A DNA stretch of 15,778 nt from a virus (Duplodnaviria; Heunggongvirae; Uroviricota; Caudoviricetes): positions 1 to 15,778 of the IMG/VR virus record IMGVR_UViG_2909298281_000001. One strand, written 5' to 3'. This document shows, one piece after another, positions 1 to 13,366 of this stretch; positions within the stretch are counted from its first letter, which is position 1; each line of letters opens with the position of its first letter. Under the pieces are notes generated by a model, which saw nothing but the letters and a program-made list of their open reading frames with translations, did not search any database and was not told the origin of the DNA. Position numbers and translations under genes: made by a program.

Positions 1-1260
1 ATGAAGCTCAACGCCAGACAGGTCGAGACCGCAAAGCCAAAAGACAAAACCTACAAAATGGCCGATGGTGGTGGTTTGTATCTTGAGGTTTCGGCCAAAG
101 GTTCCAAATACTGGCGCATGAAATACAGACGTCCCTCTGACAAAAAAGAGGATCGTCTCGCGTTTGGTGTTTGGCCTACTGTGACGCTTGCTCAGGCAAG
201 AGCAAAGCGCGATGAAGCCAAAAAGCTGTTAGCGCAGGGCATTGATCCAAAAGCCGAACAGAAAGAGGCTCAGGCCGAGAACTCGGGGGCATATACTTTC
301 GAAACCATTGCTCGTGAATGGCATGCTAGTAACAAGCGATGGAGTGAAGACCATCGATTGCGCGTTCTTCGCTATCTTGAACTTTATATCTTTCCATATA
401 TCGGTTCATCTGACATTCGCCAGCTCAAAACCAGCCACCTGTTAGCCCCTATTAAAAAGGTTGATGCCAGTGGCAAGCATGACGTTGCACAGCGTCTTCA
501 GCAGCGTGTCACGGCTATTATGCGTTATGCCGTGCAGAACGATTATATCGACTTTAATCCAGCCAGTGACATGGCCGGTGCGTTATCGACAACCAAAGCG
601 CGACATTACCCCGCCTTACCCTCCAGCAGGTTCCCTGAGTTTCTTGCTCGTCTTGCTGCATATCGTGGGCGTGTAATGACACGAATTGCGGTTGAGCTTT
701 CGTTACTTACTTTTGTGCGTTCCAGCGAGTTACGTTTCGCGCGTTGGGGTGAATTCGACTTCGATAAATCTCTTTGGCGCATACCTGCAAAACGAGAAGA
801 AATTAAAGGGGTGCGTTATTCGTACCGTGGCATGAAGATGAAAGAGGAGCATATCGTGCCGCTTAGTCGTCAGGCGATGAATTTATTAGACCAGCTAAAG
901 CAGATTAGTGGTGATAAGGAGCTGCTTTTTCCTGGTGATCATGACGCAACTAAGGTTATGAGTGAAAACACAGTAAACAGCGCATTACGTGCAATGGGAT
1001 ATGACACTAAGACTGAAGTGTGTGGACATGGATTTAGAACTATGGCTCGCGGTGCGTTAGGTGAGTCAGGGTTATGGAGCGACGACGCGATAGAACGGCA
1101 GTTAAGTCACTCAGAGCGCAACAATGTGCGTGCTGCATATATTCATACATCAGAACATTTAGAAGAACGACGCCTAATGATTCAATGGTGGGCTGATTAT
1201 CTTGATATGAATAAAACAACTTTCATCACGCCATTCGATTTTGCACGATTAAAAAAGTAA
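1..1260 (+). CDS. int: P4-family tyrosine integrase, 419 aa
   Basis: Full-length ORF. N-terminus MKLNARQVETAKPKDKTYK..GGGLYLEVS is typical of P4/IntS-like integrases. C-terminal catalytic-type motifs HGFRTMARG (HxxR) and RAAYIHTSEH (Tyr region). The window begins at the start codon, so attL and the target tRNA lie upstream, outside the window. Confidence 0.93.
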   Translation: MKLNARQVETAKPKDKTYKMADGGGLYLEVSAKGSKYWRMKYRRPSDKKEDRLAFGVWPTVTLAQARAKRDEAKKLLAQGIDPKAEQKEAQAENSGAYTFETIAREWHASNKRWSEDHRLRVLRYLELYIFPYIGSSDIRQLKTSHLLAPIKKVDASGKHDVAQRLQQRVTAIMRYAVQNDYIDFNPASDMAGALSTTKARHYPALPSSRFPEFLARLAAYRGRVMTRIAVELSLLTFVRSSELRFARWGEFDFDKSLWRIPAKREEIKGVRYSYRGMKMKEEHIVPLSRQAMNLLDQLKQISGDKELLFPGDHDATKVMSENTVNSALRAMGYDTKTEVCGHGFRTMARGALGESGLWSDDAIERQLSHSERNNVRAAYIHTSEHLEERRLMIQWWADYLDMNKTTFITPFDFARLKK

Positions 1261-1393
1261 AAACTTTTGCTGAAGTTTCTAGAAATAAAATTTGCTATAA
1301 ATCGACTATTTAAAACTTGGTGGTTGATTTCAATGTGTATTTGTGTTAATGATCTTTTAAATTGAAAAATATTCATCTCAAGTTGACGATTTT

Positions 1394-2296
1394 ATGGAAA
1401 TATCGAAAAATAAAATTTGGGAAGCCAAAGAATGGGAATCTCATGTAAATGATTTACTCCGACTAAAATTTGGTGAAGTAAATTATATATCTATACCTGA
1501 TTTTCATAATGGGGACGCTGGAATTGAGGGATATTGTGTACAGGGATATGCTTTTCAGTCTTATTGTCCTAATGAGGCATGTACAGTTGATAAGTTGTAT
1601 GAAAAACAAAGAGACAAGATGACCGCGGATGTTGCAAAATTCATTTCAGATAAAAAGGGGTATTTAAAAGAAATTCTACAAAACACCAGAATAAAAAGAT
1701 GGATTTTGGTAGTGCCATCTCACTTATCTAAAAAATTGAATGTTCATGCAACAAAAAAAGAAAGTGAAGTTCTAGCTGCTAAATTACCTTATGTTGATAA
1801 TGATGATTTCAAGGTGCTTATTTGGGATCGAGAAAATTTCAAAAAAGAGGAAGATGAATTAATTAGCAGCGGGCTTAGATTATTGAGGATAGAACTTCCT
1901 GAAGTCGATATTAACGATATTGATAATCTAAAAGATAACAATAGCGAGTTTGGCGATAATATTTCAAGGAAGCTTAGAAAGATAAAAAATGATGAGCGTC
2001 AAGTACAGACAGCTTCAACTGTATTATTAAAAAATATAGTTATGTATAAAAACATCATGAGTGGCCTCAAAGATAACTATCCTAGTTTATATGAAAATAT
2101 AACAAATGGTATACTGGATCGTGAGCAAGATTTGTCCTTGGCTTTTTTTGATTCTGAAAATTTGACTCTGACTCAGCAAATTCAACACCTTAATGATAAG
2201 CTAAAACAGTCTAGCCGTCTTCATCAAGATAATCTAAAATGTATTTCTACCGGAGTGGTTGGTGATTGGCTAATGCGCTGTAATTTGGACTTTTAA
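1394..2296 (+). CDS. Hypothetical protein, 300 aa; first gene of hotspot cargo operon (candidate effector)
   Basis: ATG-initiated 300-aa ORF in a markedly A+T-rich segment. Stop TAA at 2294-2296 lies 2 nt before the next ATG (2299), consistent with an operon. No catalytic motif I can assign with confidence; the stretch IPDFHNGDAGIEGYCVQ could be a degenerate nuclease-like acidic motif but this is speculative. Confidence 0.6.
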   Translation: MEISKNKIWEAKEWESHVNDLLRLKFGEVNYISIPDFHNGDAGIEGYCVQGYAFQSYCPNEACTVDKLYEKQRDKMTADVAKFISDKKGYLKEILQNTRIKRWILVVPSHLSKKLNVHATKKESEVLAAKLPYVDNDDFKVLIWDRENFKKEEDELISSGLRLLRIELPEVDINDIDNLKDNNSEFGDNISRKLRKIKNDERQVQTASTVLLKNIVMYKNIMSGLKDNYPSLYENITNGILDREQDLSLAFFDSENLTLTQQIQHLNDKLKQSSRLHQDNLKCISTGVVGDWLMRCNLDF

Positions 2297-2298
2297 TC

Positions 2299-2763
2299 AT
2301 GGATATTCTAAAAGAAACGCCTGAAAAGATGACTTTTAACTCGACTGGTTCGCCTGTTGAACCCGAATTAAGACCCATCTGGAGAATATCCTTGCTTGCT
2401 ATCATTCTTAAAAAACTATGCAGAGGCTCTTCTGCGAGTTTAAAAAAAATGCAAGTTTTATATTCTTTGATTTCCTCCGCCGATAAAAGAAGTCGGTATT
2501 TCACTGAAGGAGGTAATGCGGATATAAGCATTCGGTTTGATCCTCTCTTAGATAGAGCTATTTCGTTGGGAGTGGCAGAAGGTATATTTACTTTGGATGC
2601 TGCAAAAAGCGTTGTGTTAACCAATAAGGGCACGCTCTTATCTAATAAAATTTACAAAGATTCAACATTATTCGTTTTTGAAAAGGAATTTATCGAGAAC
2701 TATAGTAAATCTGAATTTTCCGATAAAAAGATAGATCAAATATTATACAGGGGAATTATATGA
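2299..2763 (+). CDS. Hypothetical protein, 154 aa; middle gene of hotspot cargo operon
   Basis: ORF tightly packed between flanking genes; its stop TGA (2761-2763) overlaps the ATG of the next gene (2760-2762) as ATGA. AGGGGA Shine-Dalgarno-like sequence at 2748-2753 serves the downstream gene. No recognizable motif. Confidence 0.55.
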   Translation: MDILKETPEKMTFNSTGSPVEPELRPIWRISLLAIILKKLCRGSSASLKKMQVLYSLISSADKRSRYFTEGGNADISIRFDPLLDRAISLGVAEGIFTLDAAKSVVLTNKGTLLSNKIYKDSTLFVFEKEFIENYSKSEFSDKKIDQILYRGII

Positions 2764-3987
2764 GCAAACTTAAGATTGAGAGATTAATTATACGAACAAA
2801 TACTAGTGATGGAATATATGGGACAGACCTTAAATTTGGCTATGGTCTAAATATTATAAGTGCTGAGAACTCTTCTGGTAAATCCACCTGTATACAATCA
2901 ATTATTTATGCACTAGGATTGGAGGGAATATTGGGACCATCCAGAAAAAATCCCTTAAAGTCTGCTCTAACTACTAAATTACGTGATAATAATGATACTG
3001 AAATACCGGTTAATGAATCAAAAATTTATCTCCAACTTTCTAACGAACATTCAAGAAAAATAACTATTTTAAGAAAAAGTGATAGTGATATTTCAAAAAT
3101 CGTTACCGTATATGACTGTGAGTTCGATAAAATCAATCCTCACAAATTTACGGACTATTTTTTGAAAGATCCCGGTTCTGCTCAGCGTGAGAAAGGATTT
3201 CATTATTTTCTTTCGAATTTCTTAGGGATAACACAGCCCGAAGTGATTAAATATGATGGAACCAAGTGTCCACTTTATCTTGAGTCAATATTCACAGTTA
3301 ATTATGTAGAGCAAACAAGAGGTTGGGGTGGGATTCTAAATGTTATTCCTACTTACTTGGGTATTAAGGATTTATCACAAAACGTTCTTGAATATACTCT
3401 TAATTTAGATGTTCGAGAAATAAGAAAGAAACGCGAGATATTTTTAGATGAAAAGAAAAATCTTGAAACTAAATGGGCAAATACAATCTCAGAGTTAGAG
3501 TCTAATGCAAAGGCTTATGGCTTCTTTGTATCAACAAGAATACCTGATAAAATCACTACAAAATCAGATACCTATCAAGATAGTGATTTATATACATTGG
3601 ATGAAAATAATCGTGAGATTTCTTTACCACTATACAAGGCTCATAAAGAGAACGAATTAGAATATATTAGAGCACAATTAAAAAATAACGACATCCCTAA
3701 TGATGGGGTGTTAGATTCTGTTCTTGATAGTCTTCGAGTGAATTTAGCTAATCAAGAATATGCTCTTTCATTATTAATCTCTGACATAGAGTCTAATAAA
3801 CTGTATATAAGTTCAATTAATAAGAGTCTGACTGATACAAAAGAAAGTCTTAGAAAATATAGAGATATTGAAAAGCTTAAGTTATTGGGCTCGCAGGAGG
3901 ATTTTTCTTTTGTCACTGGTAGTTGCCCAACTTGTGGACAAGCCGTTGAAGATACTCTCTTACCAGCGAGCTTTGATGGAAAGACAT

Positions 3988-3996
3988 TAACGGTTG
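3988..3996. repeat. IS1 target-site duplication, left copy (TAACGGTTG)
   Basis: 9-bp TAACGGTTG immediately abuts the IS1 end and is repeated exactly at 4765-4773. Confidence 0.88.
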
Positions 3997-4011
3997 GGTA
4001 ATGACTCCAAC

Positions 4012-4515
4012 TTATTGATAGTGTTTTATGTTCAGATAATGCCCGATGACTTTGTCATGCAGCTCCACCGATTTTGAGAACGACAGCGACTTCCGTCCCA
4101 GCCGTGCCAGGTGCTGCCTCAGATTCAGGTTATGCCGCTCAATTCGCTGCGTATATCGCTTGCTGATTACGTGCAGCTTTCCCTTCAGGCGGGATTCATA
4201 CAGCGGCCAGCCATCCGTCATCCATATCACCACGTCAAAGGGTGACAGCAGGCTCATAAGACGCACCAGCGTCGCCATAGTGCGTTCACCGAATACGTGC
4301 GCAACAACCGTCTTCCGGAGCCTGTCATACGCGTAAAACAGCCAGCGCTGGCGCGATTTAGCCCCGACGTATCCCCACTGTTCGTCCATTTCTGCGCAGA
4401 CGATGACGTCACTGCCCGGCTGTATGCGCGAGGTTACCGACTGCGGCCTGAGTTTTTTAAGTGACGTAAAATCGTGTTGAGGCCAACGCCCATAATGCGG
4501 GCAGTTGCCCGGCAT
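4012..4515 (-). CDS. insB: IS1 transposase InsB reading frame, 167 aa (expressed as InsAB' fusion by -1 frameshift)
   Basis: Translation [25 protein letters not shown]...NIKHYQ matches IS1 InsB as I recall it; position and length are canonical within IS1. Confidence 0.9.
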
Positions 4516-4709
4516 CCAACGCCATTCATGGCCATATCAATGATTTTCTGGTGCGTACCGGGTTGAGAAGCGGTGTAAGTGAACTGCAGTTGCCATGTTT
4601 TACGGCAGTGAGAGCAGAGATAGCGCTGATGTCCGGCGGTGCTTTTGCCGTTACGCACCACCCCGTCAGTAGCTGAACAGGAGGGACAGCTGATAGAAAC
4701 AGAAGCCAC
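4434..4709 (-). CDS. insA: IS1 InsA transposition repressor, 91 aa
   Basis: Translation [43 protein letters not shown]... with zinc-finger CxxC..CxxC and HTH region; canonical IS1 InsA length. Confidence 0.93.
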
Positions 4710-4764
4710 TGGAGCACCTCAAAAACACCATCATACACTAAATCAGTAAGTTGGCAGCATCACC

Positions 4765-4773
4765 TAACGGTTG
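4765..4773. repeat. IS1 target-site duplication, right copy (TAACGGTTG)
   Basis: Exact repeat of 3988-3996 immediately after the IS1 terminal repeat. Confidence 0.88.
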
Positions 4774-5582
4774 AAGATAATATAAAGTATCTAGAAAAAA
4801 CCTATGCAGTATTTGATAGCTTGGCAAAAAGTGAAAAAATAAAATTTGAAAGAAAAGAAGCTGCATTAAAAGTAGCTAATGCTAAAGTTCGAGACTTGCG
4901 TAATCAGATCAAAGAAGTTCAGCGTAGCATATCATCTCCTATAAACTCCGAGCTTAGAGAACTCATAAGAAAGGAAGTTAAACTGGAAAAGGATATCGAC
5001 ATTTTAAACTCACTGGAGGAATTCGAAATTAGTAAAAAAGATACACTTATGGCTGTTCTTTCTGATTGGTATGATTGTAATAATCAACTAACAGTACTTC
5101 CGTATGATGGTTTTAGCAAAGCAGATATATTAAAGTTGAGGTTATTACGTGATTCATTTAAATCAAACTTGGAGGATTTTGGTTATAAAAGTACACCAAT
5201 TGAAGAGTTTGATTTATCGAGAAATACATACAAACCAACTGTCGATGGTATAGATATCGGCTCTGAAGCATCCGCCAGTGATAACATTAGGGTGATTTGG
5301 TCATATTTGTATTCATTGTTGATGTTAGATTCCAGTGCAAGAGATATCTCAACTAATCATTTGGGACTGTTGATTATGGATGAACCAAGACAGCAAGAAA
5401 CTAAAGATGCTAGTTTTAGAACACTAATTAAGAAAGCATCTGAGTCGTATATTCAAGAAAAACAGATTATTATGGGTACTAGTGAAAAATTTACTGATTT
5501 AATTGCCATGCTGGATGGTTTGCATGTGAATCTTTTGCATTTCGATAGTAATATTATCCGTAAACAGTAAATCCCTCAATGT

Positions 5583-5618
5583 CCTGTTGCATCGCTAAAT
5601 ACTTAGCGATGCAACAGG
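5583..5618. terminator. Perfect 16-bp hairpin downstream of the cargo operon (candidate intrinsic terminator)
   Basis: CCTGTTGCATCGCTAA (5583-5598), loop ATAC, TTAGCGATGCAACAGG (5603-5618), 13 nt after the stop at 5570, followed by A+T-rich sequence. The T-run is not immediately adjacent, so efficiency is uncertain. Confidence 0.5.
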
Positions 5619-5811
5619 GGTATATAATTATTTATTTGTGTTGAATATAACTTCATCCTAATTTTTTTGTTTATGAAAAAGTCACTAAGAATAATTCATT
5701 TGGTTCTATTCGTTTTTCATTAAAATATTTAATCGAGATATTCAAAGATTTATATTCTATTTTGTCAATTGAACTGGCTGTAAAAGAGAAATCATTTAAA
5801 GTTGGCGCGCA

Positions 5812-5830
5812 GTGCTTTCCCCGCCTCGCC
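5812..5830 (-). other. cos site (19-nt cohesive end of the P2/P4 family)
   Basis: GTGCTTTCCCCGCCTCGCC on the plus strand is the reverse complement of GGCGAGGCGGGGAAAGCAC, which I recall as the P2/P4 cohesive-end sequence. It sits between the cargo region and psu, where cos lies in integrated P4. Confidence 0.75.
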
Positions 5831-5933
5831 CGCCCGCTTTGCGGGGCGGTTTTAATGCAGTTGCACTGACACGCTCAGGCCGCGCCGGGAATGGCGCGGT
5901 CTGCAGAAAATGAGGCAAGAAAACGCATGCAAA

Positions 5934-5964
5934 GCCATGCACCTTATCGATGCATGGCTTTTTT
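5934..5964. terminator. Hairpin plus T-run downstream of psu (candidate terminator, possibly bidirectional)
   Basis: GCCATGCA (5934-5941), 9-nt loop, TGCATGGC (5951-5958), then TTTTTT (5959-5964) on the plus strand. On the minus strand the same hairpin lies about 30 nt past the psu stop but with a weaker U-tract. Confidence 0.4.
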
Positions 5965-5994
5965 CAGTAAAAACGGGCAGATTTTCGGGGAGTT

Positions 5995-6567
5995 TTACAC
6001 AGACTGATGTGATGCCAGTTGCGCACTTTTACGCGAAAAAATCATGTTCTGCGCAGGGGTGAATTTTTCACGGCTGTCATCCACCGAAGCCGCGTCAGGC
6101 CTGAATCCGATGGTCGTTAAAATGTCGCTATCCTGTGCGGAATAATTAATTTTTTCACCCTTCGCAAGCCAGGACAGGAGGGCTTCACGCAGGGCATCTG
6201 TGGCACGCTGTATGGCACAGTTTCGGGCAATGACCGTCAGTTCACTGTAGCCCATCAGCTCCGGTGCCAGTGCGGCCGCCAGTACTGTGCCGTGCTGCTG
6301 CATAAAATCATTCAGCCGGTCGCGGATGCTGATGTGCTGAACGGCTTCATGCGAACGAATATAACGACCGGCGGCCTGATTCACCTGCCATTTTCTGACT
6401 TCGATAATATTGCGTAATTCGTCCAGGCGACTGACGTTTCTGCCTTCTCCTGACAGAAGCCGCAGGTATTCCTGTTCGGCCGCTGCCAGCTCATTTTTGC
6501 GTTGCAGCCATGCTGCTTTGTTATTCTGATAGGTGTCAAAGGCCTGCTGTAAGGCTGTGCTTTCCAT
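5995..6567 (-). CDS. psu: Psu polarity-suppression protein (capsid decoration / Rho antagonist), 190 aa
   Basis: 190-aa ORF beginning MESTALQQAFDTYQNNKAAWLQRKNELAAAEQEY... Length and sequence character match P4 Psu as I recall it, and it is the last gene of a sid-delta-psu order. Confidence 0.9.
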   Translation of the reverse strand: MESTALQQAFDTYQNNKAAWLQRKNELAAAEQEYLRLLSGEGRNVSRLDELRNIIEVRKWQVNQAAGRYIRSHEAVQHISIRDRLNDFMQQHGTVLAAALAPELMGYSELTVIARNCAIQRATDALREALLSWLAKGEKINYSAQDSDILTTIGFRPDAASVDDSREKFTPAQNMIFSRKSAQLASHQSV

Positions 6568-6640
6568 CGTTATCTCTTTCTCATCATGCTGAAGAATAAA
6601 AATACGGTGTGCGGCGACGGCCGGTGTTAACCGGCAGCCC

Positions 6641-7141
6641 TCATTCCAGACGCAGCGAATATGATTGTGTTTTTAACCGTACTGGCGGCAGTTCCTGTTT
6701 TTCATGCAGGCGTTCTGCCAGTTCGTCCGGTGTGACCGGGCGGACAATGAAGCGGTTGATGGTCTGAAGCGTTTTAAACACCAGACCACAGCCCGGATCC
6801 GTGCACACATAAAAACGCTCGGTGACTTCCTGAGAGAGACGCCGCGATGTTCTTGACAGTGCAAGGCCTTTACATCTCCGACAACAATATCCGGTAACAA
6901 GCATTCTTTTCGGGCGTTTCATACTGCCGGAGGCTGACGTCAGTGAATCGCGGTATCTCTGTTTGCCTGAAATGTATTCCATTCCTGAATCTTTACTGTC
7001 AGAGAAAAAGCTTTCACTCGCTTCAAATGTCGCAGAGCAATAAATATTCCGGCACTGTGCAATCATTATCTTGGTGCCATCGTCCATGAAATGTGCGCGG
7101 CGGGTGTGAGCAACATGTCCACACGACGGGCAGTAAATCAT
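6641..7141 (-). CDS. delta: Delta late-gene transcriptional activator (tandem Ogr-like zinc-finger protein), 166 aa
   Basis: Two Ogr-type cysteine clusters (CPSCGH...CRNIYC and CRRC...CTDPGC) in a 166-aa protein, the P4 Delta length as I recall. ATGA overlap with the sid stop (7138-7141). Confidence 0.9.
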   Translation of the reverse strand: MIYCPSCGHVAHTRRAHFMDDGTKIMIAQCRNIYCSATFEASESFFSDSKDSGMEYISGKQRYRDSLTSASGSMKRPKRMLVTGYCCRRCKGLALSRTSRRLSQEVTERFYVCTDPGCGLVFKTLQTINRFIVRPVTPDELAERLHEKQELPPVRLKTQSYSLRLE

Positions 7142-7872
7142 GACAGCAGTCCTCTGGCCTTAAGCTCTGCTCCCTGCTGGTCTATTTTGTCCTGCCACAC
7201 CTTGCGCTGTGCCGGTGTGCCCGCCACCTCATAATCCATGTGCGGAAGTGTTGCCGCTGACAGTCCGGTCAGCCGGAGAACCGGCTCGCCGGTGAGGCTG
7301 ATTTGCATCTGTTTTATTTTCTGTTCCAGCGATGATTTCACCTGCTGCATGACAGCTTTATCGGGTGCGACGTAGCCCTGATGCCCGGTGGTGTTGGCGA
7401 GCGGATTTTCCTGTACCAGAATGCTCAGATGCATTGCCCGGACAAGCGCCTCACAGGTTTCATTCAGGGCGTGTTCCAGCTCATGCTCTGCATACAGACT
7501 CAGCAGGTGATGATGTGCCTTCCGGTAGGCGGTGGCCGTGCTGTCACACGCCCCTTTCAGGCGTTCACGTTCGAAATTCAGCACCACGGCCAGATTGTCA
7601 TATTCCTGTACCAGCTCCCGGCGTGCCACGCGCTCAATGTGGCGCTGTTTCAGCTCGTCGCTCAGGACACCACCGGCTGCACGAAAGGCCGTGCGCCAGT
7701 CGTCAGCGTCGTTTCCGTCGGCCTGCGCCAGCGCATTTTTTTCCTGCTCTGCCCGTTCAATGGCCGCGACGGTCTCATCCATCAGGCGGGCGTTCTCAAG
7801 ATGGGCGGCTCTGGCCTTTTCCAGTTGTGCCAGTGCGGGTTGCAGATATTCAGGGATAGTGTGGTCAGACAT
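7138..7872 (-). CDS. sid: Sid external scaffold (capsid size determination) protein, 244 aa from the ATG at 7872
   Basis: The track ORF (7138..7890) starts at a GTG. The in-frame ATG at 7870-7872 is preceded on the minus strand by GAGGAG about 8 nt upstream and gives 244 aa, the P4 Sid length as I recall. Coiled-coil-like, alanine-rich sequence. Confidence 0.85.
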   Translation of the reverse strand: MSDHTIPEYLQPALAQLEKARAAHLENARLMDETVAAIERAEQEKNALAQADGNDADDWRTAFRAAGGVLSDELKQRHIERVARRELVQEYDNLAVVLNFERERLKGACDSTATAYRKAHHHLLSLYAEHELEHALNETCEALVRAMHLSILVQENPLANTTGHQGYVAPDKAVMQQVKSSLEQKIKQMQISLTGEPVLRLTGLSAATLPHMDYEVAGTPAQRKVWQDKIDQQGAELKARGLLS

Positions 7873-7897
7873 TTTCCGGCTCCTCGTCACTTCAGGT

Positions 7898-7962
7898 TAA
7901 GAAAATTGTGACGTACACCGGACAACAACACGACGCATTGCAGATGTGCCAGCCCTGACACA
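7898..7962 (-). promoter_or_regulatory. Candidate Psid late promoter with two TGT-N12-ACA Delta/Ogr-type dyads
   Basis: Dyads TGTGCCAGCCCTGACACA (7945-7962) and TGTGACGTACACCGGACA (7907-7924), centres about 38 bp apart. With a predicted leftward start near 7898 (a CACAAT -10-like hexamer on the minus strand at 7910-7905), they sit at about -55 and -17. I recall P4 late promoters carrying an extra activator site near -18. Confidence 0.5.
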
Positions 7963-8041
7963 GGAGACTCATCCTCAGACCGGCAAGCCAGGAAAAGGTC
8001 GCAGGAAAAACCGGCTTACTGTTTGTTTTTTTATATTTTAC

Positions 8042-8145
8042 TGTTCACCTCTGTTCACCATAAGAAAAAAGATAAGTAATACAGTAAGTTAAAGGGTGAA
8101 CAATCGCAGTAATGACTGTTCACCGTCTGTTCACCACTGTTCACC
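8042..8145. repeat. Iteron cluster (TGTTCACC octamers), candidate P4-type ori
   Basis: Five direct copies of TGTTCACC (8042-8049, 8052-8059, 8118-8125, 8128-8135, 8138-8145) and one inverted copy GGTGAACA (8095-8102). The same octamer recurs in the crr repeats downstream of alpha, about 4.8 kb away, consistent with the P4 ori/crr arrangement as I recall it. Confidence 0.6.
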
Positions 8146-8302
8146 CGTTAATGGGCTTTTTGTGCTGTTCATTACTTTTTATTTTTATTAATTCACTGAA
8201 ATAAATAAGAAAAAACAATTTGTATTTCACTATAATTTTTTCCAGCTCCTTCCAGAGCGTTTTAAAGCTATCTGCGCTGATGTACAAAAAATACACAGCC
8301 AT

Positions 8303-8365
8303 TGTAAGACTGCCGGAACAAATCCCCCCTGTTGCGTCTGCCGAAAATATTCACAAAATAAAGCG
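8303..8365 (+). promoter_or_regulatory. Candidate PLL late promoter upstream of vis
   Basis: TGT-N12-ACA dyad TGTAAGACTGCCGGAACA (8303-8320) followed about 45 bp later by a CACAAA -10-like hexamer (8352-8357) resembling the Psid CACAAT. A second, imperfect dyad lies near 8339-8355. Start site predicted around 8365. Confidence 0.4.
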
Positions 8366-8422
8366 CTACCCGAAGCCGGACGGACTTATCCGGTGCTGTA
8401 TGGACATTAACGAGGTAGCCCG

Positions 8423-8689
8423 ATGCAAGCTGTTTTTTCTTCCCCGTCTCCCGCCCCTGTGACGCCACTGATGCCGCTGCCGGACATCACGCAGGAGCGT
8501 TTTTTACGTCTGCCGGAAGTGATGCACCTGTGCGGCCTGTCACGCTCGACCATCTATGAACTCATCCGTAAGGGGGAATTTCCGCCGCAGGTGAGTCTTG
8601 GCGGTAAAAATGTGGCCTGGCTGCACTCTGAAGTCACCGCATGGATGGCCGGGCGCATTGCCGGACGCAAACGGGGGTACGACGCATGA
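8423..8689 (+). CDS. vis: Vis-like / AlpA-family helix-turn-helix regulator, 88 aa
   Basis: GAGG 7 nt upstream of the ATG. Sequence ...[28 protein letters not shown].. is AlpA/Vis-type HTH in character. 88 aa matches the P4 orf88 (vis) length as I recall. Confidence 0.75.
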
Positions 8690-8724
8690 TGATGCCTGTT
8701 CTGCAAAAAGTCCCTTTTTCTGGC

Positions 8725-8754
8725 TTGCCTTTTTCCGGCATTTGCGGATATAGT
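8725..8754 (+). promoter_or_regulatory. Candidate PLE early/immunity promoter (sigma-70 type)
   Basis: -35 TTGCCT (8725-8730), 18-bp spacer, -10 TATAGT (8749-8754). Lies just upstream of the seqA-like element at about 8784-8810. Confidence 0.4.
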
Positions 8755-8929
8755 TTTTCCGCTGTCGCAAAATCGGCAGCCGGGCGTAGGAACCCGTGTA
8801 ACTCGAAGGCGACATATGACGCGCCATGCGTCTTTTTTTGTGTCGCAATCAACGCCACAGAGCGCCAGATTATGGTGTGGCGTGTGGTTTGCCGTGCAGG
8901 TATGATCCTGTTCGCAATCGCATGTTATG

Positions 8930-9008
8930 CCACTGAGTCAATGGTAGCTCAGGCGGGGCAGCCTCCGGGCTGGCCGGTATTCTTCGAGGCCGGTATTCCT
9001 ACCCCCGT
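8930..9008 (+). ncRNA. Candidate CI immunity RNA (P4-type RNA repressor) containing a seqB-like element; boundaries approximate
   Basis: A segment TTCTTCGAGGCCGGTATTCCTACCC (about 8980-9004) is complementary to two flanking elements that share GCGTAGGAAC...CTCGAAGG (about 8784-8810 and 9028-9068), matching the seqA/seqB/seqC logic of P4 immunity as I recall it. Ends cannot be set from sequence alone. Confidence 0.35.
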
Positions 9009-9078
9009 CTGGGCTATCGCCATCGAGCGTAGGAACTCCGGCGATAGCAGTTATTTGCTACTCGAAGGAGACGGCCTT

Positions 9079-9276
9079 ATGGCTACAACCCTTACCCCCT
9101 CACACCCTGAATTTGTCTTTGTGTTTGCGGCTGTCCGTCGCGCAGACCGTCATCCCCGTATCTGTATGCTTCGCACCGTCGCCGGTGATGAACGCAGTGC
9201 CCGCCGTTCCCTTGTCCGTGACTATGTGCTCTCCCTTGCTGCCCGTCTGCCGGTGGTGGAGGTGTCCCGTGCGTAA
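9079..9276 (+). CDS. Small protein, 65 aa, kil-like by position (first translated gene after the immunity RNA)
   Basis: ATG at 9079 preceded by AAGGAG (9065-9070), which lies inside the downstream seqC-like element. Stop overlaps the next gene's GTG start (GTGCGTAA, 9269-9276). Confidence 0.45.
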
Positions 9277-9556
9277 TAAAAAAGCCCCTCAGACCGTCTC
9301 AGCGCGTCATGACGCCCGTGAACACCTCAGCATTGAGGCTTACCATAAGCTCAACCGCGCCAGCGCCGTATCCCAGTTTGTTGGGGGTGATTTGATTCAC
9401 CGTGAACTCTCCGGCCTGCATCAGCTCTACATTCCGCATATTTTCAGCTACCTGAATGAAGATATTGATTTTGTGCTGAATGAGCTGAAAGCCAAAGGCC
9501 TGTGCCGCGATTTTCTCGCCCAGCAGAAAGACCGGGGAGACAGGACGCATGTTTGA
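9269..9556 (+). CDS. Epsilon-like small protein, about 95 aa from the GTG start (assignment by position)
   Basis: GTG at 9269 is preceded by GGAGG (9258-9262) and is in frame with the track ORF 9113..9556. Its stop overlaps the orf151 start. Sits immediately upstream of orf151 as the epsilon gene does in P4, as I recall. Confidence 0.5.
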
Positions 9557-10004
9557 TTTTCCCCAGCCCGGTGAGATTTACCGTTCTGCCGGTTTTCCCG
9601 ATGTGGCCGTGGTCGGCATTCTGGAAGACGGTATTCCGTGGGAAATGCCGTACCGCTGCCCGGACATTGTCTGGAACCCGTACCGCCGTAAATTCAGTAT
9701 CCTTGTGCGTATCCTCGCTGACGGGCGCACCACAGACATCCCGCTGGGGCGTTTTCTGCGGGAATTTACCTGTGACCGTCCTGACCTGTTTAAACGCAGC
9801 CCCGTAAACCGGCATGCGGTACTGAAAGAAATGGCCGGAGACCCGGAATTACAGAAATGGCGGGAGAAATATCTGGATATTTACCCGCAGGACCCTGTTC
9901 CGGTCAGCCGGGCGGCACCGGTGGCGCGGGAATGGCGGGAAATTCCCCGCACGGAGCCTGACCCGGAAATCACCCCGGATAACAGTTACCGCAATTATCT
10001 GTAA
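9549..10004 (+). CDS. P4 orf151-like protein, 151 aa
   Basis: Exact 151-aa length, position between the epsilon-like gene and alpha, and start overlapping the upstream stop (ATGTTTGA). Confidence 0.8.
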   Translation: MFDFPQPGEIYRSAGFPDVAVVGILEDGIPWEMPYRCPDIVWNPYRRKFSILVRILADGRTTDIPLGRFLREFTCDRPDLFKRSPVNRHAVLKEMAGDPELQKWREKYLDIYPQDPVPVSRAAPVAREWREIPRTEPDPEITPDNSYRNYL

Positions 10005-10139
10005 TTAAAAAACGACACCCGAAAAATTAAATGTGCGTATTCGCGCAGGGATACGCACGTCTTCAGGAGACGCAGATATGCCTTATCAGTTAATGCAACC
10101 GGCACGGAATGCAGTCATCTGTCACAGGGAGGAAAGCAA

Positions 10140-10460
10140 ATGAAAACACCCTTACCGCCCGTCTTACGCGCTGCCCTTTACCGTCGTGCTGTCGCCTGTG
10201 CCTGGCTGACCGTGTGCGAACGTCAGCACCGCTACCCGCATCTCACCCTTGAGTCACTGGAGGCGGCCATCGCCGCTGAGCTGGAAGGCTTTTATCTGCG
10301 CCAGCACGGTGAGGAAAAAGGGCGTCAGATAGCCTGTGCCCTGCTGGAAGATTTAATGGAATCCGGCCCCCTGAAGGCCGCGCCGTCGCTGTCCTTTCTC
10401 GGGCTGGTTGTGATGGATGAACTCTGTGCCCGTCACATAAAAGCGCCGGTACTGCACTGA
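10140..10460 (+). CDS. P4 orf106-like protein, 106 aa
   Basis: 106-aa ORF immediately upstream of alpha with matching codon usage. The name is from recollected P4 ORF nomenclature. Confidence 0.7.
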
Positions 10461-10474
10461 AGGAGAACTACACC

Positions 10475-12808
10475 ATGAAAATGAACGTAACCGCCACCGT
10501 CAGTCATGCGCTCGGCCACTGGCCGCGTATTCTCCCGGCGCTGGGGATTCAGGTGCTGAAAAACCGTCATCAGCCCTGTCCGGTCTGTGGCGGGAGTGAC
10601 CGCTTCCGTTTTGATGACAGGGAGGGGCGCGGCACCTGGTACTGCAATCAGTGTGGTGCCGGTGACGGCCTGAAACTGGTTGAAAAGGTGTTTGGTGTTT
10701 CCCCGTCCGACGCGGCCGCAAAGGTGGCTGCCGTGACCGGCAGCCTGCCCCCGGCTGACCCGGCAGTGACGGCCGCCGCCGTTGCTGAAACAGAAGCCGC
10801 CCGGAAGAACGCCGCCGCACTGGCACAAACCCTGATGGCGAAAACCCGTCCCGGAACCGGTAACGCCTACCTGACCCGCAAGGGCTTTCCCGGCCGGGAA
10901 TGCCGGATGCTGACCGGCACACACAGAGCCGGTGGCGTGAGCTGGCGCGCCGGTGACCTTGTGGTGCCACTGTATGACGACAGCGGCGAACTGGTTAACC
11001 TTCAGTTAATCAGTGCTGACGGCCGTAAGCGCACCCTGAAAGGCGGACAGGTCAGGGGCACCTGTCACATCCTTGAAGGACAGAATCAGGCCGGAAAACG
11101 TCTGTGGATAGCGGAGGGATACGCGACCGCACTTACCGTGCATCACCTGACCGGTGAAACGGTGATGGTGGCGCTTTCTTCCGTGAACCTCCTTTCTCTG
11201 GCCAGACTTGCCCGGCAGAAGCATCCGGCCTGTCAGATTGTCCTTGCCGCAGACCGTGACCTCAGCGGTGACGGCCAGAAAAAAGCCGCCGCAGCCGCAG
11301 ATGCGTGTGAAGGTGTTGTTGCCCTGCCGCCGGTCTTCGGTGACTGGAATGATGCCTTCACGCAGTACGGCGGGGAGGCCACCCGTAAGGCCATTTACGA
11401 TGCCATCCGGCCACCGGCTGAAAGCCCGTTCGACACCATGAGCGAAGCGGAGTTTTCCGCCATGAGTACCAGCGAAAAGGCCATGCGTATCTATGAGCAT
11501 TACGGCGAGGCGCTCGCGGTCGATGCCAACGGCCAGCTTCTGTCCCGTTATGAAAATGGTGTCTGGAAGGTGCTGCCGCCACAGGACTTTGCCCGGGATG
11601 TGGCCGGGCTGTTTCAGCGGCTGCGCGCGCCGTTCTCCTCCGGGAAGGTGGCCTCCGTGGTGGACACCCTGAAGCTGATTATTCCGCAGCAGGAAGCCCC
11701 CTCCCGCCGCCTGATTGGCTTTCGTAACGGTGTGCTCGACACACAGAACGGCACGTTCCACCCGCACAGTCCGTCACACTGGATGCGCACCCTGTGTGAT
11801 GTGGATTTCACCCCACCGGTGGAAGGGGAAACGCTGGAAACCCACGCCCCCGCGTTCTGGCGCTGGCTTGACCGTGCCGCCGGTGGCCGTGCGGAAAAAC
11901 GCGACGTGATTCTGGCCGCACTGTTTATGGTGCTGGCAAACCGCTACGACTGGCAGCTCTTTCTGGAGGTGACCGGTCCCGGCGGCAGCGGCAAAAGTAT
12001 CATGGCCGAAATAGCCACCCTGCTGGCCGGGGAGGATAACGCCACATCGGCCACCATTGAGACGCTGGAATCCCCGCGTGAACGTGCCGCGTTAACTGGC
12101 TTCTCACTGATACGCCTGCCTGACCAGGAAAAATGGAGCGGCGACGGTGCCGGACTCAAGGCCATCACCGGCGGCGATGCGGTGTCCGTTGACCCGAAAT
12201 ACCGGGATGCGTACTCCACGCACATCCCGGCGGTGATTCTGGCCGTGAACAATAACCCGATGCGCTTCACCGACCGCAGCGGCGGCGTGTCACGCCGGCG
12301 GGTGATTATTCACTTCCCTGAACAGATAGCCCCGCAGGAGCGCGACCCGCAGCTTAAGGACAAAATCACCCGCGAGCTGGCGGTCATCGTGCGTCACCTG
12401 ATGCAGAAATTCAGCGACCCGATGCTCGCCCGGTCACTGCTTCAGTCCCAGCAGAACTCAGACGAGGCGCTGAACATCAAACGGGATGCCGACCCGACGT
12501 TTGATTTTATCGGCTATCTGGAAACCCTGCCGCAGACCAGCGGCATGTATATGGGGAACGCCAGTATCATCCCGCGCAATTACCGTAAATACCTCTATCA
12601 CGCCTATCTGGCCTACATGGAGGCAAACGGCTACCGGAACGTACTCAGTCTGAAAATGTTCGGGCTGGGGCTGCCGGTGATGCTGAAGGAATACGGACTG
12701 AATTACGAGAAGCGCCATACCAAACAGGGGATACAGACCAACCTGACACTGAAAGAGGAAAGCTACGGCGACTGGCTGCCAAAATGTGACGACCCTGCAA
12801 CAGCCTGA
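10475..12808 (+). CDS. alpha: Alpha primase-helicase replication protein, 777 aa
   Basis: AAGGAGA ribosome-binding site (10460-10466). N-terminal zinc-binding CPVCGGSDRF...YCNQCGAGDG followed by a primase-type acidic region (..LAADRDLSGDGQ..). Central Walker A GPGGSGKS and D5-type SF3 helicase region. 777 aa is the P4 alpha length as I recall. Confidence 0.95.
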   Translation: MKMNVTATVSHALGHWPRILPALGIQVLKNRHQPCPVCGGSDRFRFDDREGRGTWYCNQCGAGDGLKLVEKVFGVSPSDAAAKVAAVTGSLPPADPAVTAAAVAETEAARKNAAALAQTLMAKTRPGTGNAYLTRKGFPGRECRMLTGTHRAGGVSWRAGDLVVPLYDDSGELVNLQLISADGRKRTLKGGQVRGTCHILEGQNQAGKRLWIAEGYATALTVHHLTGETVMVALSSVNLLSLARLARQKHPACQIVLAADRDLSGDGQKKAAAAADACEGVVALPPVFGDWNDAFTQYGGEATRKAIYDAIRPPAESPFDTMSEAEFSAMSTSEKAMRIYEHYGEALAVDANGQLLSRYENGVWKVLPPQDFARDVAGLFQRLRAPFSSGKVASVVDTLKLIIPQQEAPSRRLIGFRNGVLDTQNGTFHPHSPSHWMRTLCDVDFTPPVEGETLETHAPAFWRWLDRAAGGRAEKRDVILAALFMVLANRYDWQLFLEVTGPGGSGKSIMAEIATLLAGEDNATSATIETLESPRERAALTGFSLIRLPDQEKWSGDGAGLKAITGGDAVSVDPKYRDAYSTHIPAVILAVNNNPMRFTDRSGGVSRRRVIIHFPEQIAPQERDPQLKDKITRELAVIVRHLMQKFSDPMLARSLLQSQQNSDEALNIKRDADPTFDFIGYLETLPQTSGMYMGNASIIPRNYRKYLYHAYLAYMEANGYRNVLSLKMFGLGLPVMLKEYGLNYEKRHTKQGIQTNLTLKEESYGDWLPKCDDPATA

Positions 12809-12815
12809 CCCACCT

Positions 12816-12841
12816 GACCGGCATCTGCCGGTCTTTTTTTT
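12816..12841 (+). terminator. Rho-independent terminator after alpha
   Basis: GACCGGCA-TC-TGCCGGTC perfect 8-bp stem (12816-12833) followed directly by a run of eight T (12834-12841), 8 nt after the alpha stop. Confidence 0.75.
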
Positions 12842-12856
12842 ATCCCGATATCCCCC

Positions 12857-13160
12857 GAAGGTGAACAATCCACTGTTCACCCTTCACCGTATGTTCACCC
12901 GTTATCACACTGAAATTAAAAGAGAAAAACGAAAGGTGAACAGTGTGAACAATCAAATCAAAAAAAACTTTTTTCTTCCTGAGTGATTTCAGTACGGGGG
13001 ATTAATCACCGGTATGAGTCACACCGGCAGAATGCCGGAGGTGAAGAATCGAATGTTCACCCTTCACCCATTATTCACCATCTATTACTCTGAAATAAAA
13101 GGAGAAAATCAAAGGGTGAACAGTGTGAACAGTTCTTCCGAAAAAAAATTTTTTATGTGG
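12857..13160. repeat. crr (cis replication region): two direct repeats of about 120 bp, each with several TGTTCACC/GGTGAACA iterons
   Basis: Unit 1 about 12857-12980 and unit 2 about 13037-13160 align closely (e.g. ..GTTCACCCTTCACC..CTGAAAT.AAAAG.AGAAAA.C.AAAGGTGAACAGTGTGAACA..AAAAAAA.TTTTTT). The about 60-bp spacing matches my recollection of P4 crr. Confidence 0.7.
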
Positions 13161-13344
13161 GTAAAAGATGCACTGGTTTGGATCCGAGCTACGGATCCAA
13201 ACTCACTGATTAAAAATTAGTTAACTTTCCGATTTGTTGATGGGTTGAAAATAGATTGGTCAGAAAAACAGTGGGGGCACAAAAGGGGGCATATTTCATT
13301 TTTGTTTTTTATTATTTGTTTTTTATCATTGACTTATTTTGATA

Positions 13345-13366
13345 TTTGAGTCCGGCCTTCGCACCT
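13345..13366 (+). other. Candidate attR core: degenerate copy of a tRNA 3' end (right boundary of the element)
   Basis: TTTGAGTCCGGCCTTCGCACC resembles a tRNA T-arm/acceptor 3' end (TTCGAGTCCGGCCTTCGGCACCA type), with one substitution and one deletion relative to my recollection of a leucine tRNA end. Located after crr where attR is expected. Confidence 0.45.

Follow-up and report, generated by a model that had tools for sequence, protein, structure and literature searches.

Location and organization of the operon

The window analysed here, a stretch of 15,778 nucleotides, contains three genes of low G+C content that lie between the integrase gene and the cos site of a P4 satellite prophage, followed by a hairpin. 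The features of the cargo slot and of its borders are listed below.

1-1260, plus strand: P4-type tyrosine integrase, 419 aa, left border of the cargo hotspot
1261-1393, plus strand: A+T-rich intergenic leader 5′ of lmuA, presumed native promoter region
1394-2296, plus strand: lmuA, effector, 300 aa, intact in the window
2299-2763, plus strand: lmuC, middle component, 154 aa, predicted winged-helix fold
2760-4001, plus strand: lmuB ORF, 5′ piece, 413 aa, stop inside IS1
4821-5570, plus strand: lmuB ORF, 3′ piece, 249 aa, TTG as first in-frame start
5582-5619, plus strand: hairpin directly 3′ of the lmuB stop, perfect 17-bp stem, 4-nt loop
5812-5830, minus strand: P2/P4 cos cohesive-end sequence GGCGAGGCGGGGAAAGCAC, 19 nt, right border of the cargo slot
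5995-6567, minus strand: psu, 190 aa, first core satellite gene past the hotspot
13348-13361, plus strand: attR core, copy of the leuX tRNA-Leu(CAA) 3′ end, right end of the satellite

The carrier is a true P4 satellite, present as a prophage at the leuX gene of E. coli. Its integrase matches Pfam Arm-DNA-bind_3, Phage_int_M and Phage_integrase, and window positions 1-1211 share 89.6% DNA identity with P4 int. On the other side of the cargo, positions 5801-5830 align with P4 1-30 and positions 5831-13365 with P4 11624-4079, with 97.3% identity spanning 7.5 kb of satellite core. Since the flanks align to P4 int and to the P4 ends, positions 1212-5800 replace P4 31-2703 (gop, beta, cII). The cos sequence is an exact match (chance expectation 0) that aligns to the P4 genome ends, and Psu (Pfam Psu, 5.6e-87) is 97.3% identical to that of P4. 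As judged from Pfam matches and alignment, int, cos, psu, delta, sid, alpA/vis, epsilon/ash and the alpha primase-helicase follow the P4 order, with integration in a tRNA gene. The attL site lies in leuX, the attR core is a 14-bp repeat of L006 5059-5072 within the tRNA-Leu gene at L006 4994-5078, and the P4 alignment stops at 13365, adjoining attP. The P4 alignments and cos thus support the preliminary description of this DNA, which had placed the cargo in the P4 int-cos hotspot, at the gop/beta/cII slot.

The three cargo genes are all on the plus strand, with a 2-nt gap between lmuA and lmuC and a 4-nt overlap between lmuC and lmuB in the ORF list, and their G+C content is 0.33-0.35, versus 0.53 for IS1, 0.47 for int and 0.555 for the satellite core. 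They were initially recognized as co-oriented, tightly spaced and A+T-rich, and the ORFs lie exactly where they had been placed. The leader contains a single weak sigma-70-like match (1383-1411), and promoter-like matches over 1261-1393 as a whole are not enriched relative to shuffles. The hairpin (-29.9 kcal/mol, z = -5.9 versus shuffles) is a probable operon terminator.

Assignment to Lamassu and predicted mode of action

Profile searches, which the preliminary description had proposed for all three proteins, gave full-length matches to PADLOC Lamassu models: LmuA at 1.7e-31, LmuC at 1e-26, and LmuB, after repair of the IS1 interruption, at 1e-99 and 333 bits to PDLC03863 (aa 2-671 on model positions 2-597 of 610), with 13 further LmuB models matched as well. 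Structure prediction and comparison of the 300-aa and 154-aa proteins, likewise proposed there, yielded folds that match solved LmuA and LmuC, respectively. LmuC fits the small middle component of the type II Lamassu architecture and, from its predicted model, is the winged-helix middle component. Because none of the three proteins has a sequence-level match to solved Lamassu proteins or reaches the cut-off of any Pfam or NCBIfam family, membership rests on the PADLOC HMMs, the predicted folds and synteny. These matches bear out the early view that an effector, a small middle gene and an SMC-like ATPase make up a Lamassu/ABC-3C system. We consider it very probable that the operon is a type II short-class Lamassu (ABC-3C, DdmABC-related) of the order lmuA-lmuC-lmuB, carried as cargo in the P4 int-cos hotspot, with a mechanism that can be proposed by analogy.

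Sequestration, DNA-end sensing, LmuA tetramerisation and over-expression toxicity have been described for Lamassu (PMC12663957; bioRxiv 10.1101/2025.03.14.643221), and defence requires the SMC ATPase and lmuC (bioRxiv 10.1101/2022.05.11.491447). The V. cholerae and Salmonella complexes suggest, by analogy, that a single LmuA monomer would be kept inactive by two LmuB protomers and one LmuC until the assembly detects foreign DNA ends or replication intermediates, whereupon LmuA would be freed. It would then oligomerise via its C-terminal domain into an active nuclease, which would cleave DNA indiscriminately and abort the infection. The function of the operon would, on the same analogy, be anti-phage and anti-plasmid defence. 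Another possibility, which we hold to be not very likely, is that its main role is interference among mobile elements (plasmid elimination, satellite or prophage exclusion, or modulation of the P2 helper) rather than protection of the host. The Lamassu of V. cholerae (DdmABC) restricts both phages and plasmids, and the fitness of the carrier satellite hinges on the outcome of helper infection; such a role would, however, involve the same molecular system with only another beneficiary, and the Lamassu systems assayed in E. coli guard against lytic phages. Host defence is the function that we favor. To our knowledge, no member of the present clade has been functionally assayed. A P4-borne 'Lamassu variant missing a known effector', which may or may not correspond to the present operon, failed to protect against 28 phages (bioRxiv 10.64898/2026.02.27.708500).

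The LmuA effector

Two segments of LmuA stand out by their conservation:

1511-1564, plus strand: predicted active-site strands, G40-D41-A-G43-I-E45-G ... F-Q55-S-Y57
1604-1642, plus strand: helix KQRDK75MTAD79VAK82F, within helix 65-85 of the predicted model

According to the model, LmuA is made up of an N-terminal domain of PD-(D/E)xK nuclease fold (~aa 1-160) and a helical C-terminal Lamassu/ABC-3C domain (~aa 170-300), that is, a variable effector domain joined to a conserved one, and its structural neighbours include Mrr-like domains. In the PD-(D/E)xK core (alpha-beta-beta-beta-alpha-beta), acidic residues occur where strand 2 begins and also on strand 3. D41, E/D45 and Q55 are each conserved in 100% of the 147 representatives compared, which were taken at 50% identity, whereas position 57 is Y in 97% and F in 3% and is K in none; on the helix, conservation reaches 100% for K75, 98% for D79 and 99% for K82. 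D41, E/D45 and Q55 occupy the expected canonical acidic/Gln positions of the active site, and K75 (or K82) on the following helix is the probable source of the catalytic lysine. Compared with the Mrr motif D...(D/E)...QxK, LmuA keeps GDxGI(E/D)G and Q55 but has Y/F in place of K, and the Mrr_cat profile finds no match. A Cap4 (DdmA-type) effector was considered and rejected, there being neither a Cap4/DUF4297 match nor a strand lysine, although the fold is common to both.

Since all 147 of 147 representatives have Y/F57 instead of the canonical catalytic lysine, nuclease activity of LmuA is putative. The N-terminal domain might instead bind DNA, act as a sensor or catalyse another reaction, in which case killing would differ from that of Cap4- or Mrr-type Lamassu. 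The residue at the lysine position of (D/E/Q)xK points in that direction, as does the lack of a match to any Pfam nuclease family, including Cap4/DUF4297 and Mrr_cat, for LmuA or for 38 members scanned individually. We nevertheless regard this as unlikely and favor a nuclease with a displaced lysine. The early idea of a possibly new effector chemistry was not upheld, because the PD-(D/E)xK fold is like that of Lamassu effectors already described (Cap4, Mrr, PDDEXK), even if the motif is non-canonical.

LmuB and its interruption by IS1

The ATPase gene is split by an insertion sequence, and its parts and motifs are arranged as follows.

2760-3996, plus strand: lmuB 5′ part, aa 1-412, N-terminal half-head, ascending coiled coil and CPTC zinc hook
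2862-2888, plus strand: Walker A AENSSGKST, aa 35-43
3306-3326, plus strand: Q-loop EQTRGW, aa 183-189
3924-3935, plus strand: zinc hook CPTC, aa 389-392
3988-3996, no strand: IS1 target-site duplication, left copy, TAACGGTTG, perfect 9-bp direct repeat
3997-4764, minus strand: complete IS1, 768 bp, insA/insB on the minus strand, after lmuB codon 412
4765-4773, no strand: IS1 target-site duplication, right copy, TAACGGTTG, perfect 9-bp direct repeat
4774-5570, plus strand: lmuB 3′ part, aa 413-677, descending coiled coil and C-terminal half-head
5271-5282, plus strand: SASD signature, aa 579-582
5367-5396, plus strand: Walker B LLIMDEPRQQ, aa 611-620

LmuB belongs to the Rad50/SMC-like ABC ATPases and has a zinc hook of sequence CPTC. 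The Walker A, CxxC and Walker B motifs and the SMC/Rad50-like layout noted at the outset are all present, and Walker A, the Q-loop EQTRGW, CPTC, SASD and hhhhDEPxQQ are kept in orthologues at 24-48% identity. Short-class Lamassu have a Walker B of the form hhhhD[Q/S/T/E] and an LmuB of ~600 aa, and the long class hhhhDD and ~800 aa (PMC12663957). The LLIMDE of the present protein fits the short class, with the DEPxQQ block conserved clade-wide, and its length of 677 aa lies between the two classes, nearer the short.

The IS1 copy has terminal inverted repeats GGTAATGACTCC.../GGTGATGCTGCC..., its genes match Pfam DDE_Tnp_IS1, Zn_ribbon_InsA and HTH_Tnp_IS1, and the element finds thousands of copies in E. 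coli genomes. Excision of IS1 together with one copy of TAACGGTTG gives a single ORF of 2,034 nt encoding 677 aa, just as the preliminary description had reconstructed it, and a search for the uninterrupted operon found the 677-aa lmuB whole in other E. coli genomes at 99.5-99.8% DNA identity; the disruption is found in the present genome only. The insertion lies 20 residues past the zinc hook, leaving Walker A on one fragment of lmuB and the signature and Walker B on the other, and therefore the ATPase cannot form. Because lmuB is split just after the hook, the window copy of the operon should be inactive, and we predict from the sequence that it is non-functional. It could be argued that some activity is retained, through unsequestered LmuA or reassembly of the LmuB halves, since lmuA and lmuC are intact, an in-frame TTG start for the C-terminal part is available at 4821, and LmuA is able to auto-activate at high concentration. 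This seems very unlikely: defence needs a functional SMC ATPase, Walker A is separated from the signature and Walker B with the coiled coil broken beside the hook, neither a ribosome-binding site nor a promoter is evident for the lmuB 3′ fragment, and the locus is tolerated by the strain.

Distribution, synteny and decay of alleles

The LmuA clade comprises ~1,000 representatives at 50% identity. The order and sizes of the three genes (~300, 155-182 and 660-693 aa) are kept in all six of the distant loci examined (Achromobacter, Pseudomonas, Vibrio, Paracoccus and two metagenomes), and all six are mobile contexts with integrases, Tn7-like tnsABC, a resolvase and toxin-antitoxin genes, or IS elements. 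In E. coli the intact operon is found in 2 of 5,426 complete genomes. The idea that the ATPase is a housekeeping RecN/RecF/SbcC/Rad50/SMC orthologue with two unrelated genes upstream, for which one could cite weak local similarity to Pfam SMC_N (0.0028), weak similarity to NCBIfam archaeal SMC-related protein (ASRP), SMC and Rad50 models, and the UniRef title of one member ('Rad50/SbcC-type AAA domain-containing protein'), is effectively refuted, as LmuB falls below every cut-off (17-33 bits versus curated cut-offs of 40-1,087; best scores 33.4/300 for ASRP, 23.2/729 for SMC and 18.2/1,000 for Rad50) while scoring 333 bits over the full length of the LmuB model, belongs to a 33% G+C cargo of a P4 satellite with that sparse occurrence, and is accompanied by lmuA and lmuC homologues in every distant locus examined. 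Neither of the two computational grounds that would have refuted the preliminary description, an ATPase of a non-defence family or a trio that never co-occurs elsewhere, therefore applies.

Degenerate alleles involve a further feature:

1753-1759, plus strand: A7 homopolymer in lmuA, A8 in a widespread E. coli lineage

The A8 allele cuts lmuA into halves of 124 and 183 aa, and this slippage was seen on ~290 contigs, versus ~320 on which lmuA is intact. In Shigella dysenteriae and some E. coli, lmuC or lmuA is truncated at its N-terminus. There are thus at least three independent lesions: IS1 in lmuB, A7-to-A8 in lmuA, and truncated lmuC or lmuA. One could speculate, with little confidence, that this Lamassu clade is recurrently switched off in its P4 carrier, being costly or in conflict with satellite biology; a conflict is conceivable because P4/P2 cos ends and plasmid or foreign-origin replication are signals that Lamassu senses. 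The lmuA poly-A tract could also be a reversible contingency (phase-variation) switch of an auto-toxic defence. If true, recurrent inactivation would provide a counter-example to a recent claim by which P4 hotspots very rarely contain defence pseudogenes.

Significance of the operon

The P4 int-cos hotspot gains another confirmed occupant, a Lamassu with a non-canonical restriction-endonuclease-fold effector, and ~1,000 protein clusters labelled 'hypothetical' by NCBI, Pfam and NCBIfam can now be named. The LmuA clade represents a compact 300-aa effector whose catalytic lysine has apparently moved, and it lends itself to testing how Lamassu effectors are coupled to a common C-terminal oligomerisation switch. 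Intact, frameshifted, truncated and IS-disrupted alleles of a near-identical operon constitute a natural experiment on the cost of abortive infection to the satellite. The find is correct yet fairly ordinary, as neither the type of system nor the hotspot nor the general mechanism is new: Lamassu-family systems in prophage hotspots have been documented (bioRxiv 10.1101/2022.05.11.491447) and Lamassu variants of P4-like hotspots examined experimentally (PMC11754643; bioRxiv 10.64898/2026.02.27.708500). Its interest is less than first thought, since standard PADLOC models detect the subfamily and the window copy is inactivated, and the current picture of Lamassu and P4 hotspots is unchanged.

Comparison with known systems

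The solved systems used for comparison were the V. cholerae type II Lamassu/DdmABC (LmuA-Cap4, LmuC, LmuB; PDB 9nxx, 9ny1; PMC12663957) and LmuACB of Salmonella enterica (PDB 9hqx, 9hr5; bioRxiv 10.1101/2025.03.14.643221), to which the present proteins show no detectable pairwise sequence similarity. The present LmuA is shorter, with 300 aa versus 352-391 residues in the matched PDB chains, the strand lysine K57 of V. cholerae LmuA is Tyr/Phe57 in the present clade, and LmuB has the CPTC zinc hook, whereas V. cholerae LmuB is without a hook. Lamassu-Mrr and Lamassu-PDDEXK are described subtypes, and Lamassu-Mrr of E. coli SE15 has been validated (Millman et al. 2022, bioRxiv 10.1101/2022.05.11.491447). 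In the present LmuA the QxK of Mrr is Qx(Y/F) and Pfam Mrr_cat is undetected, and the SE15 system is below ~65% DNA identity to the present operon, as gauged by a genome DNA search.

In P4-like hotspots of E. coli O55:H7/O157, 'Lamassu-var' (CP038295 4116517-4120474; Domainator paper, PMC11754643) provides weak protection against T-even phages (PMC11754643). Like the present operon, it is a Lamassu/ABC-3C-related cargo with int on one side and the psu/delta/sid module of a satellite on the other, but it is a different system of five genes (138, 205, 152, 394 and 188 aa; ABC-3C in the NCBI annotation). The Psu of its carriers is only ~31% identical to P4 Psu, whereas the present element shares 97% identity with P4 itself. 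P4 gop-beta-cII, listed as 'gop-beta-cII' among the P4 hotspot clusters, has the same int-cos position and the same role as exchangeable cargo; its genes are unrelated, a 2.67-kb module being replaced by the 3.8-kb Lamassu operon together with 0.78 kb made up of IS1 and its target-site duplication.

With Rad50-Mre11/SbcCD, LmuB has in common the split ABC head, the antiparallel coiled coil and the CxxC zinc hook. Its coiled coil is, however, much shorter, its partners are LmuC and LmuA instead of Mre11/SbcD, its gene is mobile and sporadically distributed and not a core gene, and its scores lie far below the Rad50/SMC equivalog cut-offs. Lamassu has been proposed to descend from SbcCD (PMC12663957).

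Identification of the cargo as a Lamassu operon

The preliminary description had proposed that the three cargo genes form a Lamassu (ABC-3C) anti-phage operon, and PADLOC-DB models, run with LmuB in its repaired form (IS1 and one copy of its target repeat removed in silico), bear this out for all three proteins.

PADLOC-DB matches of the three proteins
300-aa protein: LmuA model PDLC03852, 1.7e-31, full length
154-aa protein: LmuC model PDLC03871, 1e-26, full length
677-aa repaired protein: LmuB model PDLC03863, plus 13 other LmuB models, 1e-99, full length

Pfam and NCBIfam gave no match above cut-off for the three proteins, and none of the Cap4, Mrr_cat, ABC-3C CTD and MC families could be assigned from them; scanning 38 LmuA family members singly against Pfam still gave no match above cut-off. 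That the ATPase is a housekeeping RecN, SbcC or SMC orthologue can be dismissed, since the SMC, Rad50 and archaeal SMC-related models of NCBIfam/Pfam score in the tens of bits against curated cut-offs in the hundreds. LmuB carries a Walker A motif (aa 35-43), a Q-loop (EQTRGW, 183-189), one CPTC zinc hook (389-392), an SASD signature (579-582) and a Walker B motif (LLIMDEPRQQ, 611-620), and all five are kept in orthologues down to 24% identity. This hhhhDE type of Walker B characterises short Lamassu systems (PMC12663957). PDB sequence searches with each protein and with a LmuA profile returned nothing relevant, and the tie to solved Lamassu proteins is made through predicted folds only.

Operon layout and interruption by IS1

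All checked details of the locus as initially described (ORFs, IS1, repaired gene and G+C content) proved accurate.

Features of the operon
1394-2296, plus strand: lmuA, 300 aa
2299-2763, plus strand: lmuC, 154 aa
2760-4001, plus strand: 5' ORF of lmuB, 413 aa
4821-5570, plus strand: 3' ORF of lmuB, 249 aa, with only a TTG start
3997-4764, insA/insB on the minus strand: complete IS1, 768 bp, with characteristic terminal inverted repeats
3988-3996 and 4765-4773: perfect 9-bp direct repeat flanking IS1, TAACGGTTG

Deletion of IS1 and a single repeat copy regains an ORF of 677 aa (2,034 nt), and other E. coli genomes carry the uninterrupted 677-aa gene at 99.5-99.8% DNA identity. IS1 lies after lmuB codon 412, 20 residues beyond the zinc hook, and the truncated LmuB (412 native residues plus Gly) keeps Walker A but loses the signature and Walker B. 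No expression signals were evident for the 3' part of lmuB, and a promoter scan found 18 sites, close to the 17.4 expected. Since the LmuB product lacks signature and Walker B and the 3' part has no evident expression signals, the system in the window is predicted to be dead; lmuA and lmuC are still intact. A stem-loop directly 3' of the lmuB stop (5582-5619; perfect 17-bp stem, 4-nt loop, -29.9 kcal/mol, z = -5.9) is likely the terminator, and was missed by a consensus scan because its tail is A/T-mixed.

The LmuA effector

An AlphaFold2 model of LmuA (38 homologues in the alignment, pLDDT 89) has an alpha-beta-beta-beta-alpha-beta succession followed by a helical C-terminal half. Its structure neighbours include the PD-(D/E)xK nucleases FokI (9.7), CdiA-CT EC869 (8.5), LlaBIII (8.3), N.BspD6I (8.1) and AF1548 (8.1), together with Salmonella LmuA (9hqx_A, 7.9), and Avs4, Can2, MspJI, NgoMIV and HamA come lower in the list; the best Foldseek matches are LmuA chains as well. 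Across 147 representatives, D41, Q55, K75 and, in the C-terminal domain, K193 are conserved at 100%, K82 at 99% and D79 at 98%, position 45 is always E or D, and position 57 has Y in 97% and F in 3%, but K in none. Mrr-type enzymes have the motif GDGGIDG...QxK; the LmuA motif GDxG(I/L)(E/D)G...Qx(Y/F) is similar to it, except that the strand carries no lysine. V. cholerae LmuA uses K57 as its catalytic lysine (PMC12663957). We infer that LmuA is a nuclease whose lysine has been relocated to K75 or K82, in the helix after strand 3, and by its predicted fold the effector counts among the restriction endonucleases, as a non-canonical member. The suggestion that the effector chemistry might be new is therefore not upheld, because this fold is already used by Lamassu, in the Cap4, Mrr and PDDEXK subtypes (bioRxiv 10.1101/2022.05.11.491447).

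By analogy with solved homologues, LmuA would be held through its C-terminal domain by two LmuB protomers and one LmuC, and would be freed when DNA ends or phage replication intermediates are bound. Freed LmuA could then assemble into a cyclic tetramer, creating the DNA-cleaving site, and cleavage of DNA would kill the cell and abort the infection. Lamassu defence depends on all three parts, LmuB ATPase, LmuC and effector (bioRxiv 10.1101/2022.05.11.491447). The LmuC homologue search returned close relatives alone (identity at least 58%), and the alignment behind the LmuC model is therefore shallow.

P4 satellite context

The window aligns to phage P4 (NC_001609) on both sides of the operon: 5831-13365 matches P4 11624-4079 at 97.3% identity, 5801-5830 matches P4 1-30, and 1-1211 matches P4 int at 89.6%. 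Window 1212-5800 therefore fills the slot of gop/beta/cII (P4 31-2703), where the operon had indeed been placed, as A+T-rich cargo in a G+C-rich core; the G+C content is 0.33-0.35 for the three genes, against 0.555 for the satellite core, and 0.53 for IS1. Pfam bears out int, Psu, Delta, AlpA, Ash, DUF5375 and the alpha primase-helicase, and the element is integrated at leuX, which encodes tRNA-Leu(CAA) and lies a short way upstream of the window.

Features of the satellite
5812-5830: cos sequence, 19 nt
13348-13361: attR core repeat
182 bp upstream of the window: leuX attL

From attL to attR the element measures ~13.54 kb, 16% more than the 11.62 kb of P4 (10% more without IS1), and packaging into the small P4 capsid may be affected. 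The int gene is 89.6% identical to that of P4 and the remaining core 97.3%, and it is apparently the cargo, not the core, that int moves with. Compared with L001 and L008, two loci from other genomes, int and the Lamassu module (window 1-5800) are 99.85% identical, whereas the adjoining P4 core is 93-96% identical, with window 6553-7018 unaligned and delta encoding 81 aa in both loci against 166 aa in the window. One cargo is thus found on different P4 backbones, a sign of recombination in or close to the hotspot. Two 120-bp direct repeats at 12855-13154, cross-matching at ~80% identity, are the counterparts of the crr (cis replication region) repeats of P4. Beyond attR, a 216-aa ORF (14140-14790, plus strand) weakly matches PADLOC models of type IV methyl-directed restriction enzymes (1e-4) and has no Pfam match; for its neighbour, an ORF of 326 aa (14798-15778, minus strand), PADLOC gives no match.

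Conservation and spread

The contigs examined for LmuA homologues of 27-50% identity come from Achromobacter, Pseudomonas, Vibrio parahaemolyticus, Paracoccus and two metagenomes, and in all six lmuA is followed by a gene for 156-182 aa and an ATPase gene for 660-693 aa, co-oriented; the three genes thus do co-occur elsewhere, contrary to a refuting case set out in the preliminary description. Next to them lie integrases, a Tn7-like tnsABC set, a resolvase together with toxin-antitoxin genes, or IS elements. When 1.84 billion representatives were scanned in full with HMMER, the result was 1,023 LmuA clusters at 50% identity (E <= 0.001), 530 of which reach E <= 1e-30, and nearly all of the best 150 of the 1,023 are ~300 aa long. 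Together with the synteny, this makes the trio a widespread, mobile, co-inherited unit. In the Vibrio parahaemolyticus locus (L012, 1-8454) the homologous lmuA-lmuC-lmuB directly adjoins Tn7-like tnsA/tnsB/tniB, so that Tn7-like transposons, too, carry this Lamassu clade as cargo. A tblastn search of phage records gave no match to the operon.

Allelic states

Among 5,426 complete E. coli genomes of RefSeq, two carry the operon intact, 2013C-4974 (NZ_CP027587.1 4789992-4793842) and OkiPb01713, and all its genes are labelled 'hypothetical' there; a distant blastn of complete E. coli genomes found these as sole carriers and did not locate the validated SE15 Lamassu-Mrr. In a larger protein collection, intact LmuA sequences occur on 227 and 91 contigs. 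The A7 tract of lmuA (1753-1759; around 6008 in the comparison loci L007-L010) has one A more (A8) in a widespread lineage of E. coli, in which lmuA is cut into halves of 124 and 183 aa while lmuC and lmuB are intact. This A8 allele is found on ~290 contigs, intact and frameshifted alleles being about equally frequent in the protein collection. Shigella dysenteriae and some E. coli have an lmuC starting at M51 (104 aa, with a 114-aa form too) or an lmuA of 225 aa starting at M76 (cluster members P0178, P0186 and P0136), which suggests additional independent inactivation events. The IS1 allele is known from one genome, E. coli CP024252.1, the source of the window, being the sole contig on record with an IS1-split lmuB. 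Counted from the allele states, one near-identical operon appears to have suffered at least three independent lesions. Of the pseudogenes in P4, <1% are reported to stem from defence genes (bioRxiv 10.64898/2026.02.27.708500). It could be that inactivation is recurrent, and possibly switchable, owing to a cost or to conflict with the satellite life cycle, but we regard this as rather improbable.

Comparison with known systems

Lamassu-family systems in prophage hotspots have been noted earlier (bioRxiv 10.1101/2022.05.11.491447, citing Rousset et al. 2022), and a 'Lamassu-var' abundant in P4-like hotspots was described with Domainator (PMC11754643). Identity with the latter was suspected from the lengths (3,958 bp cloned, 3,957 bp for the repaired hotspot) and was ruled out, the match being a coincidence: CP038295 has different genes in a different element. 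'Lamassu-var' (E. coli O55:H7 TB182A, NZ_CP038295.1 4116517-4120474; locus L005) is a five-gene ABC-3C-type cargo of a distant satellite with sid-psu-delta gene order, whereas the operon described here has three genes. Another Lamassu of P4, described as 'missing a known effector', is reported to have had no effect when tested, though it may or may not belong to the present clade (bioRxiv 10.64898/2026.02.27.708500). The operon of the window belongs to an established type of system, occupies a recognised hotspot and is predicted to be inactive through the IS1 insertion; within Lamassu it is a hitherto uncharacterised member whose nuclease motif is unusual.
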